A DNA stretch of 64,000 nt from a virus. This document shows positions 2,374-14,233 of the stretch, piece by piece (the stretch's first letter is position 1; every line of letters starts with the position of its first letter). The stretch is taken from positions 1-64,000 of IMG/VR virus record IMGVR_UViG_3300049893_000773. The stretch is one strand, 5' to 3'. The notes under the pieces are model-generated. The model was not told where the DNA came from and did not search any database. It was given only the letters and a program-made list of their open reading frames with translations. A program made the translations under genes and the position numbers.

Positions 2374-3396
2374 ATGGCCTCACAGAGAGAAATCATCGAA
2401 TTCATCGAAAATGCATTTGGTACGGGTACGCTTTCAAATGGCGGCTTGAACATCTCTGTTGTATGCCCTATCTGTGCGGAACGTCAAGATAATCTCCAAA
2501 AGAGGAAGCTGGTTATCCGCACGGATGACTTCTTGACCCATTGCTGGGTGTGTGGGTATCGGTCCACCAATCTCGTAAATCTACTTTCGGCCTACCATCC
2601 AGCCCTCCTCCCGGAGTACAAGAAGAAGTTTCGGATCAAAGCCCGAGAGCGCAAGCTTTGCAACTTCACCGAAACAATCAAATTGCTGGCGGAAGGTAAG
2701 GAGCCGGTCAAGAAGGAACTGAATCCGGCTCTCACTCTCCCGGCTGGATTCAAGATGCTCGCCCTGGATCTGAAGCCAAAAGACGGAATTACTCGTCGGG
2801 CACTTCAATACCTCTTCAAGCGTGGGTTGACCGAGGCAGACCTGTGGCGTTGGAAGATCGGAATTGCCACAACTCCACCCGGAGAAGGGGAACAGGACTT
2901 CCGGTACAGGGTCATCGTCCCTTCCTTTGATTCCATGGGGAAGCTCAACTTCTTTGTGGGTCGAGCCTTCCTCCCAGGATGGAAGGGACCACCCTACTCC
3001 AATCCACCCTTGAAGCGGGAGGAACTTGTCTTCAATGAATTGAACATCGACTGGACCAAGGAGCTCACCCTGGTTGAAGGTGTCTTTGACATGATCAAGG
3101 CCAATGACAACACCACCTGCATCCTGGGATCATCCTTTGATTCCTCCTATAAGCTCTTCCAGGAGATCGTACGCCATCAGACCCCCGTACTCCTTGCTCT
3201 CGATCCAGATGCCAAGGGAAAGGCGCTGAAAGCCGCCAAAGCCCTCCTGGAGTACGGAGTCACCGTCAGGTTCCTGGAGCTACCCCCAGGGATCAAAGAC
3301 GTGGGCGAATTGAAGAAGGGGGAGTTTAACACCTATTCGGAACGTGCGAAGCTCATGACGATGGAAGACTTCTTCCAGATGAAGTTGAGGGAATGA
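2374..3396 (+). CDS. DNA primase (Zn-binding domain plus TOPRIM)
   Basis: CPIC...HCWVC zinc ribbon, YLFKRGL, LVEGVFD, LALDPDA, KDVGE. Confidence 0.85.
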   Translation: MASQREIIEFIENAFGTGTLSNGGLNISVVCPICAERQDNLQKRKLVIRTDDFLTHCWVCGYRSTNLVNLLSAYHPALLPEYKKKFRIKARERKLCNFTETIKLLAEGKEPVKKELNPALTLPAGFKMLALDLKPKDGITRRALQYLFKRGLTEADLWRWKIGIATTPPGEGEQDFRYRVIVPSFDSMGKLNFFVGRAFLPGWKGPPYSNPPLKREELVFNELNIDWTKELTLVEGVFDMIKANDNTTCILGSSFDSSYKLFQEIVRHQTPVLLALDPDAKGKALKAAKALLEYGVTVRFLELPPGIKDVGELKKGEFNTYSERAKLMTMEDFFQMKLRE

Positions 3397-3399
3397 GCA

Positions 3400-3636
3400 A
3401 TGTCAAAGTGGCATAAACGTGTGATTATCCAGGGAAAACTTGGTGAGTTGTCGAAGGTGGAGGAAGAGCTGGAAGAGGCTTTTGACGCTGAGGAGCGAGG
3501 ACAAACGCTTATGCTCCTATTCGAGCTTTCCGACATCATTGGTGCTTGCGGTCTTGTTGCGGCCAAGTACGGCTTGTCGCTGGATGACCTTGTGAAGTTC
3601 TCCAAGCTCAGAAGCGAGGTGGCGAAAAATGGTTGA
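3400..3636 (+). CDS. MazG-like NTP pyrophosphohydrolase (single small domain)
   Basis: KVEEELEEAFDA...ELSDII acidic helical EExxE...ExxD pattern. Confidence 0.55.
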   Translation: MSKWHKRVIIQGKLGELSKVEEELEEAFDAEERGQTLMLLFELSDIIGACGLVAAKYGLSLDDLVKFSKLRSEVAKNG

Positions 3637-4312
3637 CCTGGACCAGTACGTGCGAAACGGCGTCTTCTTCCCGGATCACAAGCTCTCCATGCTTGAAGCG
3701 GACCTCTTCAGGGACATGGAAACGGTCTTGTGTTTCCGGGGTTTTCAATACCTTTCCGTCCCCTCGGTGGTCACCAAGGAGACCTACGAGCGGCAAGGGA
3801 CGATCCCCTGGGAGAAGGTATTCAAGATTGGAGAGGATCATGCTCTGGCCGGTTCCGCAGAACAGGGAATCCTTGAGATGTTCACCGGGAAAACGGTGGA
3901 TCGACTCAGTAAGTTTTACGCCAAGAATCAGTGTTTCAGGAATGAGAACAAGCCCTACGAGGGGTTGAAGCGTCTTCGCGAGTTCTTGAAGATGGAGCAG
4001 TTCCTCTTTGTCCCGGAGGATAGAGCCGAGGAGTTCATGGAGGAATCCATGGGGATCGTTACTGGCTTCCTACAACGTCATCACATCAAATACCGCATTG
4101 TCGATATGACCGAAAAGGACGAGGGCTACCACCTGGAGAAGAAGGACGTTGAGGTTTACACCAAGTCCTATGGCTGGCTGGAGACACACTCCTGTTCCTA
4201 CTTTGGTCATGAGCAGACAAAGCGCTTTGGCATTGACGGTGGAATGACCACGATCAGTAACACCGCAATCGCCTCTCCTCGAATCCTGGTCCCTTTCCTT
4301 GAGCGCGGATAA
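3629..4312 (+). CDS. Seryl-tRNA synthetase-like class II catalytic core lacking the N-terminal coiled-coil arm
   Basis: LAGSAEQ (TxE loop), CFRNE...GLKRLREFLKMEQF (motif 2), DVEVY...ETHSCS, ISNTAIASPRILVPFLE (motif 3). Only 227 aa. Confidence 0.75.
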   Translation: MVDLDQYVRNGVFFPDHKLSMLEADLFRDMETVLCFRGFQYLSVPSVVTKETYERQGTIPWEKVFKIGEDHALAGSAEQGILEMFTGKTVDRLSKFYAKNQCFRNENKPYEGLKRLREFLKMEQFLFVPEDRAEEFMEESMGIVTGFLQRHHIKYRIVDMTEKDEGYHLEKKDVEVYTKSYGWLETHSCSYFGHEQTKRFGIDGGMTTISNTAIASPRILVPFLERG

Positions 4313-4360: not shown

Positions 4361-7300
4361 ATGAAAATTGCTCACATTTCCGACATTCACTGGATGGGAC
4401 TCTCGCGACACGAGGAGTACACTCGGGCTTTCACAATCCTGTTCTCCAAGCTTCGTGAGATCCGACCCGATGCAATCTTCCTGGGGGGAGATTACTTCCA
4501 CACCAAGACTTCTGGCATCTCCCCCGAGGTGATCGACCGTCTTGCCTGGATGTTCAAGTCCTTTGGGGATATTGCTCCGACGCATGCTATCCTTGGCAAC
4601 CACGATGGTAACCTCGCCAACGAAAGCAGGGAAGATGCCATTTCGCCTATTGTGAAGGCGATGGACTACGACAGGGTAAAACTCTACAAGGGTTCCACCG
4701 AAGTGGACATTGGAGACTTCAACTCAGCCGAGGTTTGCCTTTGCGTGTTCTCTTGCTTCGATAAATCCGGCTGGAACGAGGTTTGCCCGGTTGAAGGGGC
4801 TATCAACATCGCTGCATTCCATGGCTCCGTTGGTGGATCGACCATGGACAATGGCTGGATCATGCCGGATGCCAAGGCAGAGGTCCAACTCTCGATGTTC
4901 GATGGTTACGACTTCGTACTCCTGGGAGACATTCACAAGCGTCAGTTCCTTGCCGAGAGACGGGACAAGAATGGGGTGATGAAGCCTTACGCAGCCTATC
5001 CCGGCTCCTTGATTCAGCAGAATCATGGGGAGGATGAGGTCAAGGGTTTCCTTTTGTGGGATATTCGGGCAAAAGATGACTGGGACGTTGAGTTCATCGA
5101 AATTCCCAACTCCCAACCATTCTTGACGATCCCATGGATGGGGTCCGCTCAAGAGACCGCCGATGCCGTTTCGGCTGTTCGAGGCAAGATCCTCCCAGGC
5201 TCTCGGTTCAGGGTGGATTCGGTTGCTCCCTTGCTTTCCGCCGAACAGCGTCAGGTGGAACAACTCTTGCTCCAGGCATTCAAGGCCGAGTCGGTGTGCT
5301 TCCAATCGAAGCTCAAGAACCGTTATGACTCAGTGACCACCGGAGAAACAACGGTTAAGAAGTCGTCCCTGCGGAACAGTCCCGACGTGATGCGTGCGCT
5401 CTACGCTCAATTCCTTAATGGGAATGTCAAGAAGTTCCCGCTTTCTCCAGAGCAAGTTGAGCTTGGGAACGCTTTGATTGACAAGTTCATGGTCAAGGCA
5501 AAGGACACCGAGAAGGAGACCGTCCGTGATGTTTCATGGAGCCTGAAGAGCATCGAGTTCGACAACCTGTATCGGTATGGCCCAGGCAACAAGTTGAATC
5601 TTGAGGTCCTTGATGGCGTGGTTGGCGTATTCGGCAAGAACAAGACAGGCAAGAGCAGCCTTGTGGGTGCCCTCCTCTACACCCTTTTCAATGGCTCGGA
5701 TCGAGATGGGATTACACGCAACGGCCACATTATGAATCAGTCCAAGAACCACTGCCAAGCGAAGGCTGTGATCAGTGTTGACGGGACGGATTACGTGATT
5801 GAACGCAGTTCTGCCCGTACAGAGCTTCCAAAGAAGGGAAAGAAGTCCGGGGAGCAATTCGACCCAGAGAAGACGGAAACCAAGCTGTCTTTCTACCGCC
5901 TTACACCGTCTGGAAGGGTGGAACTGAATGGCATCAACCGAGAGGACACCGACAAGGCTATCAGGAGGCTGCTGGGGAGCCCAGATGACTTCCTGGCCAC
6001 CTCCGTGGCAACCCAAAGACGCATGGAATCCTTCATTGATGAAGGACCGACGGCAAGAAAGACGATCCTCAATCGCTTTCTGGACCTGGAGGTCTTTGAG
6101 ACGCTTCATTCCTATGCAAAAGAGGAAACAGCGTCCTTGACAGCAAAGATGGCGGCTCTCCCTCTGATGGACCAAGAGGAGGGTGAGGCGTTGAATGACA
6201 AAATTGCCGAGCTTGAGAAGGACATCTCAAACATCGACAACGACCTCGTTGAATTTCGAGCTTTGGACGCTCAACAGCAAGGTTGGTTGGCGAAGAATGA
6301 CACCCTTCACATCAACCGGAACCTGAACGCCCTTCGGGAGGAACTCGCCCAGAAGAAGCAACTCTTGAGCAAGTACAAGGTCCAGCGGGTCACGTTTGCC
6401 CAGAATGTGGCAGCTATGAAGGAGAATATCGCTGCTTTCTCGGCCAAGATCGAGCGCACCAATCCAGCGGAATTCACGGATGGCGTCAAGAGGTTGGCCG
6501 AGTTGACAGCCAAGTTCAACACGACTGACGGCTTGGTTCGTGAGGTGTCCGATCGCCTTCAGAACCAGGAAAAGAACGTGCGGAAGCTGTCCTTGGTTCC
6601 GTGCGGGGACAGCTTTCCTGAGTGCCGGTACATCAAGGATGCCCATGAAGACAAGAAGATCCTGGGCAACACACAGCAAAAGCTGGCCGAACTCTCTTCT
6701 GTCCTCAAGGAATTGACGGAAGCCGTGAAGGCAGAGAAGGAGCAGCGTTTTGCTGAGAAGCTTTTGCAGTACAACGAGGCAAAGTCGAAGCTTCAACTCC
6801 TTGAGGCCAATCTCAAGACCGAGGAAGCCAAACTTCAATCTCTGGACAACCTGGAGGTTGTAGCAGCGGAAGCCGTGGCCCGTTTGATCCCCCAGGTGGA
6901 AGAGCTTGAGGCGGAACTCAACACCTACAACCTGGAAGCCATCAAGGAAATGGAACGCAAGTGCCGAGAGTTGAAGGATAAGCTAGCCTTCATGGAGCGG
7001 CAGAAGGGAGCCAACGTTGCCCTGCTTGCCAAGCTCCAGGTTCGTCAAGAAATGATGGAAAAGGCCGCTGTTGATCGAGAGGCTCTTGCGAAGGAATTGA
7101 AGGTTCTGGAGTCTGTCCAGGCTGCTTTTCACCGAAATGGCATCCCGGCAATTGTCCTGAAGACTCAACTCCCTGCGATCAATCAGGAAATTGACCAACT
7201 CCTTGGAGGGTTGGTGGACTTCCGCATCATCTTCGAGACGGAACCCGGCTCCAACTCCCTTGACATCCTGATTGAGGATGGTCATTCCAAGAGGCCATTG

Positions 7301-7579
7301 GAGCTTGGTTCTGGCATGGAAAAGATGATCGCTTCCATTGCGATCAGGGTTGCCCTGGTCAACCTCTCCAACCTGCCCAAGGCCGACATCTTCATTATCG
7401 ACGAGGGCTTCAATGCCCTGGATGAGGAGCACGTTGGCAAGTGCCTGGAGCTTCTCCAGGGACTCAAGCAGCACTTCAAGACCATCCTGGTGATCTCTCA
7501 CATGCAGCGGGTTAAAGAGGCATCTGATTCGATCATCGAGGTGGTTTCGACAGGTATGGATTCAAGGATTGAGGCGTAA
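4361..7579 (+). CDS. Fused SbcD/Mre11 nuclease - SbcC/Rad50 ATPase (T4 gp47+gp46-like)
   Basis: HISDIH, GGD, GNHD, FHG and LGDIH metallophosphoesterase motifs, then Walker A GKNKTGKSS, a long coiled coil, signature LGSGME and Walker B FIIDEGF, all in one frame. Confidence 0.9.
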   Translation: MKIAHISDIHWMGLSRHEEYTRAFTILFSKLREIRPDAIFLGGDYFHTKTSGISPEVIDRLAWMFKSFGDIAPTHAILGNHDGNLANESREDAISPIVKAMDYDRVKLYKGSTEVDIGDFNSAEVCLCVFSCFDKSGWNEVCPVEGAINIAAFHGSVGGSTMDNGWIMPDAKAEVQLSMFDGYDFVLLGDIHKRQFLAERRDKNGVMKPYAAYPGSLIQQNHGEDEVKGFLLWDIRAKDDWDVEFIEIPNSQPFLTIPWMGSAQETADAVSAVRGKILPGSRFRVDSVAPLLSAEQRQVEQLLLQAFKAESVCFQSKLKNRYDSVTTGETTVKKSSLRNSPDVMRALYAQFLNGNVKKFPLSPEQVELGNALIDKFMVKAKDTEKETVRDVSWSLKSIEFDNLYRYGPGNKLNLEVLDGVVGVFGKNKTGKSSLVGALLYTLFNGSDRDGITRNGHIMNQSKNHCQAKAVISVDGTDYVIERSSARTELPKKGKKSGEQFDPEKTETKLSFYRLTPSGRVELNGINREDTDKAIRRLLGSPDDFLATSVATQRRMESFIDEGPTARKTILNRFLDLEVFETLHSYAKEETASLTAKMAALPLMDQEEGEALNDKIAELEKDISNIDNDLVEFRALDAQQQGWLAKNDTLHINRNLNALREELAQKKQLLSKYKVQRVTFAQNVAAMKENIAAFSAKIERTNPAEFTDGVKRLAELTAKFNTTDGLVREVSDRLQNQEKNVRKLSLVPCGDSFPECRYIKDAHEDKKILGNTQQKLAELSSVLKELTEAVKAEKEQRFAEKLLQYNEAKSKLQLLEANLKTEEAKLQSLDNLEVVAAEAVARLIPQVEELEAELNTYNLEAIKEMERKCRELKDKLAFMERQKGANVALLAKLQVRQEMMEKAAVDREALAKELKVLESVQAAFHRNGIPAIVLKTQLPAINQEIDQLLGGLVDFRIIFETEPGSNSLDILIEDGHSKRPLELGSGMEKMIASIAIRVALVNLSNLPKADIFIIDEGFNALDEEHVGKCLELLQGLKQHFKTILVISHMQRVKEASDSIIEVVSTGMDSRIEA

Positions 7580-7581
7580 CC

Positions 7582-8034
7582 ATGTACTTCAAATGTCGAT
7601 ATTGCCACAAAGACATTGTAGGATCGGACAACAGAGCCCACATCTACTACCGAGGTGATGACTCTGACGATCCCGAGCCGTACTACTTTGTTCATGTTGC
7701 CTGCTCAAAAGCGCATATTGCTTCGATCTCTGGGAGCAGCAGCAGCCATGAACATGACTCCGGGGAGATTGCCTGCACCTTCTGCAAGAAGGGGGTTACC
7801 GGCGAGGCTTTGATCAGGTACAAGTACGAGGACCACTACGTGGATGAGACCCTCGTCTTCCATCGCACCTGTGAGAAGCCTTATCGCCTTTTCCAGGCCG
7901 GAAAAGTCCATCAGTGTCCCAAGTGCGAGGGACTTGGATTCATCATGGTCAACAATAGCACCTGTAAGCTTTGTGAAGGGGATGGCATGCTGGAGAAGCC
8001 CGCAATCCCCATTGATTGGAAGAAGGCCCCGTGA
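7582..8034 (+). CDS. Cys/His-rich zinc-binding hypothetical protein
   Basis: Two CxxC...HxxC units plus two DnaJ-type CxxCxGxG repeats. Confidence 0.55.
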   Translation: MYFKCRYCHKDIVGSDNRAHIYYRGDDSDDPEPYYFVHVACSKAHIASISGSSSSHEHDSGEIACTFCKKGVTGEALIRYKYEDHYVDETLVFHRTCEKPYRLFQAGKVHQCPKCEGLGFIMVNNSTCKLCEGDGMLEKPAIPIDWKKAP

Positions 8035-8489
8035 ACATCTTCTTGCTCGATCAGGACCCAGTACAAGCAGCGAGATACCACTTTGATCGTCATGTGGTTA
8101 AGATGACGGTTGAAACAGCCCAGTTGCTCTCGAATTGCGTTGAGTATCAAGACGGCAAGACCTACCGTCACAGCCACGAGAAGCACCCCTGCACTCTATG
8201 GGTAAAGGAGAGTCCGGTTCACTTCTGGTGGCTCTTCTACTTTGGTTTGGCTCTTGGAGAGGAGTACACCTTCCGGTACGGCAAGAAGCATTCTTCCGTT
8301 GCTGTTATCGAGGAATGCGGCAAGCACATGGTTCACTCAGCCGGTGTGCCCTCTTACTTCGTCCAGGTGATGCCTGACGAGTGCAAGGTCCCTGGGAATA
8401 CTGTCCAAGCATACCGGAACCTCTACATGGGACCAAAGCGTAGTCTTGCCAAATGGAAGAAGCGAGACACTCCCTGGTGGTGGGTCTAA
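8031..8489 (+). CDS. Pyrimidine-dimer DNA glycosylase family protein (DenV-like)
   Basis: MNIFLLD...DRHVVKMTVETAQLL, HPCTLW, EYTFRYGKKH, AYRNLY, PWW. GTG start overlaps the upstream stop. Confidence 0.75.
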   Translation: MNIFLLDQDPVQAARYHFDRHVVKMTVETAQLLSNCVEYQDGKTYRHSHEKHPCTLWVKESPVHFWWLFYFGLALGEEYTFRYGKKHSSVAVIEECGKHMVHSAGVPSYFVQVMPDECKVPGNTVQAYRNLYMGPKRSLAKWKKRDTPWWWV

Positions 8490-12969: not shown

Positions 12970-13321
12970 GGGCGCGACCCGGTTTCGACGTGGATAGCAA
13001 AGGATTGACAGCGTGACGGCAGGCGTTGGTACTGCCATAAAGATTCCGACAAAAACACAAGGCGCTGAAGAAGCCCTCCCTCTCGCTGCTTGATAGCACG
13101 AGACACTGCCTGAGAGCTCTGTTCGGGCGTTCAGAGCAGTGATTCAATCGAACAAGGTTCCCCAAGATGCTTGTGGTAGGGAGAACCGAGATACTACAAG
13201 ATCCTCCCCTGAAAGCCCCCTTGTTGGCGTTTAGACGGAGTACAATAGCAAGGAAGGTCACGTAGGAAAGTTGATTCAGAGGTATTCGCGGACCTGAGTT
13301 CGACTCTCAGCGCGTCCACCA
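12970..13321 (+). ncRNA. ssrA: tmRNA
   Basis: 5' GGGCGCGA...GGTTTCGAC; 3' T-arm CTGAG-TTCGACT-CTCAG, then CGCGTCC-ACCA with a G3:U70 pair. Internal tag ORF ...GAEEALPLAA ends in tandem stops TGA TAG (13061-13096). Confidence 0.92.
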
Positions 13322-13322
13322 C

Positions 13323-13426
13323 GGGTGTGTAGTTTAGAGTATCCCACGATTCTGGCGCCGGAATCTTGGGAGCGGGAGAACGGGGGCCGAAAGCCCCAAA
13401 CGTTGGTTCGAGTCCAATCACATCCA
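13323..13426 (+). ncRNA. Atypical tRNA-like RNA (Ala-type acceptor, hairpin-expanded D-loop, non-canonical anticodon arm)
   Basis: Acceptor GGGTGTG/CACATCC+A; D-stem GTTT/GAAC; arm GGGGC-CGAAA-GCCCC; T-arm GTTGG-TTCGAGT-CCAAT. Confidence 0.7.
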
Positions 13427-14153: not shown

Positions 14154-14226
14154 GGGGCCATAGCTCAGTTGGGAGAGCGCGACAATGGCATTGTCGAGGT
14201 CGTCGGTTCGAACCCGACTGGCTCCA
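14154..14226 (+). tRNA. tRNA-Ala (GGC)
   Basis: Canonical cloverleaf: GGGGCCA/TGGCTCC-A, anticodon arm CGACA-ATGGCAT-TGTCG, T-arm GTCGG-TTCGAAC-CCGAC. CCA is not encoded. Confidence 0.95.
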
Positions 14227-14233
14227 CTTCAAA

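Follow-up and report, generated by a model that had tools for sequence, protein, structure and literature searches.

In the 64,000-nucleotide stretch of virus DNA analyzed here (IMG/VR record IMGVR_UViG_3300049893_000773, positions 1 to 64,000; hereafter the window), which comes from a giant freshwater phage, two overlapping genes on the + strand probably make up an enzyme module, found in large phages, that joins serine to something other than tRNA. The first gene, S (positions 3400–3636), encodes a 78-amino-acid (aa) protein resembling the HisE/MazG-type all-alpha nucleoside triphosphate (NTP) pyrophosphohydrolases (phrog_6408). The second, C (positions 3629–4312), encodes a 227-aa catalytic core of seryl-tRNA synthetase (SerRS) with class II motifs 1, 2, and 3 and without the tRNA-binding arm (phrog_4806). 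Both were recognized as open reading frames (ORFs) supported by profile matches. As had been suggested in a first-pass annotation of this DNA, an acceptor other than tRNA is the best reading for C. We favor a pathway in which C makes seryl-adenosine monophosphate (seryl-AMP) and then transfers serine to an acceptor of nucleotide type that S acts on, and we give this reading a probability of about 0.5. The window was taken from a virus record of 87,662 bases with a CheckV completeness of about 25%, which implies a full genome of several hundred kb, only part of which is represented.

C Retains the SerRS Active Site and Lacks the tRNA-Reading Elements

Results of the profile searches placed C among the class II synthetases. 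It matched the Pfam family tRNA-synt_2b (class II core G, H, P, S, T) with an E-value of 1.6e-13 and 51.5 bits, above the gathering threshold of 29.3, and phrog_4806 with 5.8e-29 over profile positions 4–184 of 190. The best solved relative of the single sequence was the T. thermophilus SerRS (PDB 1ser; E 1.4e-11). A profile of the C family reached 6e-23 on the same structure, with positions 10–222 aligned to residues 159–395 of 421, and SerRS accounted for 29 of its 30 PDB matches at E ≤ 0.001. The NCBIfam model serS (TIGR00414) was matched with E 4.6e-16, yet only over model positions of about 186–400 and with 58.8 bits, below the equivalog cut-off of 301.65. The five SerRS motifs that the first-pass annotation had listed in this ORF are indeed present in the SerRS order (LAGSAEQG, CFRNE, GLKRLREFLKME, ETHSCS, and NTAIASPR).

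Alignment of C with 1ser left about 150 N-terminal residues of the synthetase without a counterpart; these make up the coiled-coil arm plus the initial ~50 residues of the catalytic domain. The absence of the coiled coil reported in the first-pass annotation thus holds, whereas its figure of ~100 missing residues was too low. The motif 2 loop of C is shorter by 4 residues, and about 13 residues before motif 3 as well as the last ~26 C-terminal residues are missing. In SerRS, the N-terminal arm reads the long variable arm of tRNA-Ser. Judged from this alignment, C has lost every tRNA-reading element of SerRS. A search of the whole 87.6-kb contig with the serS model returned no serS-like (arm) stretch besides C itself; hence no neighboring gene supplies the arm.

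At the same time, the catalytic center is conserved. Thirty-eight columns were invariant across 35 members of the C family, among them P45 (motif 1), S76, E78, R104 and E106 (motif 2), F119, E123, E185, S188, T212, and R218 (motif 3). In 1ser these correspond, in the same order, to P191, T225, E227, R256, E258, F275, E279, E345, S348, T380, and R386, residues that we take to bind the amino and hydroxyl groups of serine, the adenine, the phosphates, and magnesium. By this alignment, C keeps every residue matched to the serine/ATP pocket of the T. thermophilus enzyme. The ratio of nonsynonymous to synonymous substitution rates (dN/dS) was 0.10–0.11 for C and 0.11–0.12 for S against the 82%-identical relatives L005 and L006; these values are rough, dS being above 1 and near saturation. 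Overall, the C sequence is intact and looks catalytically competent. Neither C nor S gave a match in PADLOC.

Arm-Less Cores Form a Separate Family in Large Phages

A word-indexed search revealed relatives of C in 288 clusters (90% identity) at E ≤ 1e-3. Among the matches listed (120 of 288) the proteins were 173–244 aa long, although proteins of up to 398 aa were eligible, and many of the relatives were located on contigs of 200–887 kb. An exhaustive profile search yielded 45 C representatives at E ≤ 1e-30. Scores within the family fell from 345 to about 120 bits; canonical SerRS proteins (415–430 aa) appeared from 119 bits, aligned from about residue 160. For comparison of loci we gathered 86 with the core from phage records, IMG/VR, metagenomes, and GTDB genomes, which gave 67 distinct core sequences. 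The 49 of these that were in one piece and covered at least 195 of the 223 profile positions were used for a tree rooted with five SerRS catalytic domains. Arm-less cores were separated from SerRS with 100% support in the Shimodaira–Hasegawa-like approximate likelihood ratio test (SH-aLRT), and the C protein of the window was placed inside the arm-less clade. Length, profile scores, and tree show that C belongs, by sequence, to a discrete family of SerRS cores of about 220–245 aa without the tRNA-binding arm.

Among 50,697 phage records, the family was found in Bacillus phage G (two records), Bacillus phage vB_BpuM-BpSp, and the 485-kb uncultured phage LR745208. Five further matches were weaker, and the two of them that were checked proved to be full-length SerRS. 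These two, which have the N-terminal arm, are encoded by Brevundimonas phage Kikimora (locus L086, 433 aa) and the faecal phage contig MT835472 (locus L087, 429 aa); therefore canonical and arm-less forms both exist in phages. Members of the C family are annotated in GenBank and IMG as seryl-tRNA synthetase. The two-gene form is encoded by gp286/gp287 in phage G and by gp012/gp011 in vB_BpuM-BpSp.

These data bear on whether C could be a decaying, functionless remnant of a full-length phage SerRS, as damaged copies occur among its relatives: in LR745208/L015, L052–L054, L057, and L072 the core is split, and L085 has a 118-aa chimera. The window copy is intact, however, the length of the family is uniform, and both the 38 invariant columns and the dN/dS of about 0.1 speak against decay, so that we consider this explanation extremely improbable. 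Likewise, the scenario of full-length homologs with a recent pseudogene in the window, raised in the first-pass annotation, was not borne out: the 120 listed homologs are short, the arm-less cores form a clade of their own, and dN/dS is about 0.1.

Two kinds of broken copies were seen. In LR745208 and its IMG copies (L003/L015/L056), the core lies in two frames as ORFs of 110 and 106 aa (about positions 8000–8600 of L015) downstream of an intact S, which we read as a frameshift or assembly error. In L085 (positions 53–409, 118 aa), P0194, and P0197, chimeras of 118–122 aa join the first ~23–45 residues of S to the last ~70–85 residues of C; their sequence suggests that internal deletions in the pair gave rise to them.

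S Is the Obligate Genetic Partner of C

Conservation of the MazG-like neighbor across phages, which the first-pass annotation had put forward for examination, was evident from the gene order. Of the 67 distinct cores, 58 came from informative loci, seven having no upstream DNA and two ending inside a third gene, R, described below. In 55 of these loci, S lay upstream of C in the same orientation. It was adjacent to C (gap ≤130 nt) in 17 loci, the window included, and separated from it by R in 26; six loci carried R::S fusions, and the remaining six had another insert or an extended S. Clustering of all neighboring ORFs yielded no other neighbor family common beyond close kin. Upstream of the pair, we found NAD-synthesis genes in phage G and an RNA polymerase subunit gene in vB_BpuM-BpSp.

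Gene fusions pointed to the same association. In a set of 66 longer S-domain proteins, R and S were fused in 20 in the order R-S and in four in the order S-R, C and S in five as C-S and in two as S-C, while 35 had extensions that were not recognized. The protein P0180 matched phrog_6408 and phrog_4806 in one chain; in P0341 (C-S form) the distant core was detected by profile comparison with a probability of 93%. S is fused to C or to R and is thus the hub of the module. Taken together, S is the obligate genetic partner of C, which does not support the role of a loosely linked nucleotide-pool manager for the MazG-like protein of the first-pass annotation. Prediction of a C+S complex gave a score of 0.00, below the mark, with controls absent, and speaks neither for nor against binding.

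The same observations have to be set against the simplest alternative, namely that C is a genuine minimal SerRS that charges the tRNA-Ser of host or phage, perhaps with the help of a protein, next to S as an unrelated house-cleaning MazG. No catalytic or serine-pocket residue has been lost, genuine aminoacyl-tRNA synthetase genes do occur in large phages (the full-length enzymes of 433 and 429 aa above), and the database label is seryl-tRNA synthetase. Yet the arm that reads tRNA-Ser is absent from every member of the family and is not supplied by another gene in the contig, the motif 2 loop is reduced, and the serS score is far below its cut-off. Moreover, a partner that lies upstream in 55 of 58 loci and, in 7 of 66 longer proteins with an S domain, forms one chain with C is unlike a chance neighbor. 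We consequently regard this explanation as improbable and retain the view that C serves an acceptor other than tRNA.

Several loci showed unusual arrangements around the pair. Two related loci, L050 (positions 7056–8013) and L055 (6910–7965), have between S and C, in place of R, genes for a small zinc-ribbon protein (CxxCxGxG) and for an acidic protein of 217–240 aa that matches no known family. A link between the L055 insert and the zinc-ribbon ORF of the window (positions 7582–8034) was considered and rejected, as the two have only a 33-residue CxxCxGxG stretch in common. An HNH endonuclease gene (Pfam HNH, 2.4e-4) lies between S and C in L013 (positions 6726–7334). S proteins with long extensions of no recognized family measured 244 aa (L012/L045/L047/L049), 219 aa (L059/L060), and 230 aa (L061), and reached 474–506 aa in P0344–P0346.

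S Resembles HisE/MazG-Type NTP Pyrophosphohydrolases

S matched phrog_6408 with 1e-20, while its matches to curated families were below threshold: Pfam PRA-PH with E 0.014 and 16.2 bits (cut-off 21.3), Pfam MazG-like with E 0.079, and the NCBIfam PRA-PH domain with E 0.002 and 18.3 bits (cut-off 42.7). The best PDB sequence match was HisE 2a7w (E 0.062), aligned through the acidic motif. In 42 sequences, residues E22, E23, E26, E42, and D45 were invariant, giving the pattern EExxE(x15)ExxD. The form EExxE(12–28)ExxD is the metal-binding signature of all-alpha NTP pyrophosphohydrolases. K19 was also invariant in this set and K11 nearly so.

The predicted model of S consists of three helices, with a predicted local distance difference test (pLDDT) value of 94.3. 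Foldseek ranked two HisE structures first (probability 1.00), followed by MazG, with E-values of 0.13–2 and no match reaching E ≤ 0.001. In VIA-align the Z-scores did not exceed 5.6, and MazG 1vmg and HisE 1yvw (Z 5.5) were tied with unrelated helical hairpins, so the fold alone leaves the family unsettled. The nearest Atlas clusters were viral, partly with PRA-PH or MazG. In the light of the motif and the fold ranking, membership of S in the HisE/MazG superfamily is very likely. The MazG-like character given to the small ORF in the first-pass annotation is supported by the EExxE(x15)ExxD motif and by HisE and MazG being among the top folds, although not by profile matches above threshold.

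Two other identities of S were tried and rejected. A carrier protein is disfavored because its sole candidate serine, S44, is replaced by alanine in phage G, and a split-off SerRS arm because S has the HisE/MazG motif and aligns to HisE.

The likeness of S to HisE also suggests a reading in which C does not transfer serine at all. C could be a serine-dependent maker of dinucleoside polyphosphates (Ap4N) or a serine-sensing regulatory subunit of S. Attack of an NTP on seryl-AMP gives Ap4N, and class II synthetases can make Ap4A; HisZ, a HisRS paralogue that has lost its catalytic residues, regulates HisG. S resembles HisE, which like HisZ/HisG belongs to the histidine pathway, and the tight coupling and the S/C fusions would suit a two-subunit enzyme. 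On the other hand, the catalytic residues of C are all invariant, unlike those of HisZ, and no data point to Ap4N specifically. We therefore see little chance for this reading and continue to favor transfer of serine.

A Facultative Radical SAM Gene Accompanies the Pair in Many Loci

The R gene encodes a protein of about 263 aa with a CxxxCxxC motif, a GNGEPS (GGE-type) motif, and a partial TIM barrel, as in radical S-adenosylmethionine (SAM) enzymes. Its model (pLDDT 88) had MoaA (E 5e-9), viperin and viperin-like proteins with bound cytidine triphosphate (CTP), and BlsE as best folds. In total, 92 fold matches were obtained at E ≤ 0.001, with template modeling (TM) scores of about 0.6 and 14–16% identity, so only membership in the radical SAM superfamily is certain. 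R remained below every curated cut-off; its pVip matches in PADLOC were weak, and the EpmB model matched it with E 0.0087 in the cluster region only. MoaA acts on guanosine triphosphate, and viperins on CTP or uridine triphosphate.

R was not found in the 87.6-kb window contig or in the full-length records of phage G, vB_BpuM-BpSp, and LR745208 with a profile built from 30 R sequences (E ≤ 0.01), which matched two positive controls. A single-protein search in phage G, vB_BpuM-BpSp, LR745208, a metagenome-assembled genome, and the window contig, run without a positive control, also returned nothing. The only PF04055 (Radical_SAM) match in the contig had 13 bits, below threshold; it lies at contig positions 75003–75191 (outside the window), inside an 834-aa ORF, and is probably spurious. 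For the window phage the search covers about 25% of the genome, so R may be encoded elsewhere in it. As this phage has no R at the locus, the gene had gone unnoticed in the first-pass annotation. In the tree, the R-bearing forms occupied derived sub-clades and three changes suffice to explain them, and the two-gene form was spread over deep branches, including the clade of the window.

The pairing of a truncated class II synthetase core with a radical SAM enzyme, seen in many loci, recalls EpmA/EpmB (PoxA/YjeK), which lysylates elongation factor P (EF-P); EpmA is a truncated LysRS paralogue and EpmB a pyridoxal phosphate-dependent radical SAM aminomutase. By analogy, C could be a protein aminoacyl ligase that places serine, or a derivative of it made by R, on a lysine or another residue, possibly of S or of a host factor, and the invariant K19 and nearly invariant K11 of S would offer such sites. 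A passive acceptor, however, would have no need of the full acidic catalytic motif kept in S. Besides, R is nearest to MoaA and viperin and not to the aminomutases, and it is absent from the form present in the window. Of the known systems, EpmA/EpmB comes closest to a truncated class II core that acts together with a radical SAM enzyme, but it differs from the phage module in that C is derived from SerRS, R is MoaA/viperin-like and facultative, and the constant partner is pyrophosphatase-like. For these reasons we think a protein ligase unlikely and return to a nucleotide-type acceptor as the preferred reading.

Proposed Activity of the Module

In the pathway that we propose, C would activate L-serine with ATP to seryl-AMP and then move the seryl group onto a small acceptor of nucleotide type, at one of its hydroxyl or amino groups, instead of onto the 3′ adenosine of tRNA; chemically, this step would equal the charging of the terminal tRNA adenosine by a synthetase. 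S would cut the alpha–beta bond of the matching NTP, either substrate or product, to the monophosphate and so drive the pathway. Where present, the viperin/MoaA-like R would first remodel the NTP, so that in the three-gene form the nucleotide is rewritten before seryl transfer. The product would be a seryl-nucleotide, with candidate roles as a precursor for nucleic-acid modification, an inhibitor, a signal, or a counter-defence molecule. In favor of a nucleotide theme, S has the EExxE(x15)ExxD motif and aligns to HisE 2a7w, and the top folds of R are MoaA, viperins, and BlsE.

Several points weigh against this proposal. The acceptor of C is purely what we infer, and a class II core, even a minimal one, might charge tRNA weakly. 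The assignment of S to HisE/MazG relies on sub-threshold matches and on fold scores (Z 5.5) shared with helical hairpins. With regard to linkage, S lies 1.7 kb away and on the opposite strand in L075 (1 of 58 informative loci) and was not found in L018 and L063 (2 of 58). The likeness of R to MoaA and viperin, as far as the model tells, is only at the general radical-SAM level. One sample series supplied many of the 26 S-R-C loci, which fall in a few clades and hence are not independent. Finally, R is absent from the window contig, phage G, vB_BpuM-BpSp, and LR745208, so the nucleotide theme may not apply to the two-gene form. In L018, a high-G+C ORF resembling a membrane permease stands in place of S upstream of the intact core (positions 1–960); the contig may be chimeric or represent an integration junction.

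Comparison With Known Synthetase Paralogues

Bacterial SerRS (1ser/1ses) is the best sequence match of C in PDB, Pfam, and NCBIfam and shares with it motifs 1–3, the TxE-type loop (SAE in C), fRxE, ETHSCS, NT(A/G), and the motif 3 arginine. It has the coiled-coil arm, the C-terminal tail, and a part of the motif 2 loop that C is without, and unlike SerRS the arm-less cores form a separate clade whose genes are tied to one for an NTP-pyrophosphatase-like protein.

Amino acid:[carrier protein] ligases derive from zinc-dependent methanogen-type SerRS and adjoin carrier-protein genes. They are reportedly SerRS-like proteins, for example Bradyrhizobium Bll0957, and are said to have been described by Mocibob and colleagues in 2010. 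As proposed for C, they are SerRS-derived, have no tRNA-binding domain, and use a non-tRNA acceptor; in contrast to them, C is nearest to bacterial-type SerRS and its partner S is not a carrier protein. Neither an amino acid:[carrier protein] ligase nor a methanogen-type SerRS occurred among the 30 PDB matches of C, whose SerRS entries all bear the name serine--tRNA ligase; such an absence is weak evidence.

GluQRS (YadB), MshC, and AsnA are synthetase paralogues whose acceptors are a modified nucleoside hydroxyl, a sugar amine, and ammonia. Their aminoacyl-adenylate chemistry is of the kind proposed for C; unlike C, GluQRS and MshC are class I enzymes, and none of the three is SerRS-derived or tied to HisE/MazG. 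With HisE (1yvw, 2a7w) and MazG (1vmg, 2yxh, 3cra), which are among its best fold matches, S shares the EExxE…ExxD pattern. It differs from them in its 78 aa and three predicted helices, in scores below the Pfam and NCBIfam cut-offs, and in its tie to C and R through gene order or fusion. R shares CxxxCxxC, the GGE-type motif, and the partial TIM barrel with viperin and MoaA, while membership in either subfamily lies beyond what 14–16% identity can decide.

In the part of the literature open to our search, subscription journals lying outside it, we found no paper on an arm-less phage SerRS, a MazG/HisE partner, or the radical SAM trio. C is probably a tRNA-independent synthetase paralogue of a kind already known, whereas the S-(R)-C module itself is probably undescribed.

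Genomic Context of the Pair

The coordinates and the 8-nt overlap of the two ORFs were confirmed by reading the sequence: the overlap, ATGGTTGA (positions 3629–3636, + strand), joins the stop of S with the start of C. The ATG of C lies inside the last codons of S, and a Shine–Dalgarno-like GAGGTGG is present 7–13 nt upstream of it, an arrangement that fits translational coupling.

As described in the first-pass annotation, the pair is located between a primase and an SbcCD gene, both of which we regard as context outside the module. The DNA primase gene (positions 2374–3396, + strand; phrog_47 9e-38, Toprim matches) ends just before S, whose start is 3 nt past the primase stop, and primase, S, and C follow head to tail on the + strand. 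A gene for a fused SbcD-SbcC nuclease/ATPase (positions 4361–7579, + strand; Metallophos, SMC_N/AAA_23/SbcC Walker B; phrog_100 and phrog_77) begins 48 nt downstream of C as a single 1072-aa ORF. A simple scan detected no terminator-like or sigma-70-like sites between primase, S, C, and SbcD-SbcC. The setting was called a replication operon in the first-pass annotation, but it recurs only in close kin (L004–L007 and L017), where the SbcD-SbcC fusion is also present with 70–73% identity, and it is not a feature of the family.

The first-pass annotation had further offered an odd tRNA-like RNA at position 13323 as an acceptor for C. This RNA of 104 nt has G3:U70 and A73, a 39-nt insert in the D-loop, and no long variable arm; ARAGORN made no call for it. 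A transfer-messenger RNA (tmRNA) gene (Rfam, 110.9 bits) precedes it by one base, both lying within positions 12970–13426, and a tRNA-Ala(GGC) gene follows 0.7 kb past it (14154–14227). The features of the RNA, including the short variable region, are alanine-type, so nothing links it to the serine enzyme, and we rejected it as a substrate of C.

Other genes in the vicinity included one for a protein with a TnsA-like endonuclease N-terminal domain upstream of the primase (positions 1316–1819; 6.1e-18) and one for a pyrimidine-dimer DNA glycosylase-like protein downstream of SbcCD (8016–8489; 1.1e-6). Two DNA runs labeled freshwater sediment metagenome contain at least half of the sampled words of the window; no RNA run was among the sequencing runs listed for it.

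Implications for Large Phages

Synthetase paralogues without tRNA binding have repeatedly proved to do unexpected chemistry, such as lysylation of EF-P, loading of carrier proteins, and mycothiol synthesis. The C family is widespread in large phages and is annotated in databases as a tRNA synthetase; since it probably does not charge tRNA, the counts of translation genes in huge phages are inflated. As cultured Bacillus phages G and vB_BpuM-BpSp carry the two-gene form, the question is testable at the bench.

A more specific form of the proposal, of which we are doubtful, is that the pair acts as a tRNA-independent aminoacyl-nucleotide synthase, in which a nucleotide monophosphate released by S would take the place of the 3′ adenosine of tRNA and a seryl-nucleotide would be made. 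If this were true, phages would be making a small molecule of a new class, a seryl-nucleotide that might, for example, mimic seryl-adenylate or the end of an aminoacyl-tRNA and serve in host takeover, modification of nucleic-acid precursors, or counter-defence. The coupling of C to a pyrophosphatase-like protein and often to a viperin/MoaA-like R points to an undescribed nucleotide–amino-acid metabolite pathway in the conflict between phage and host.

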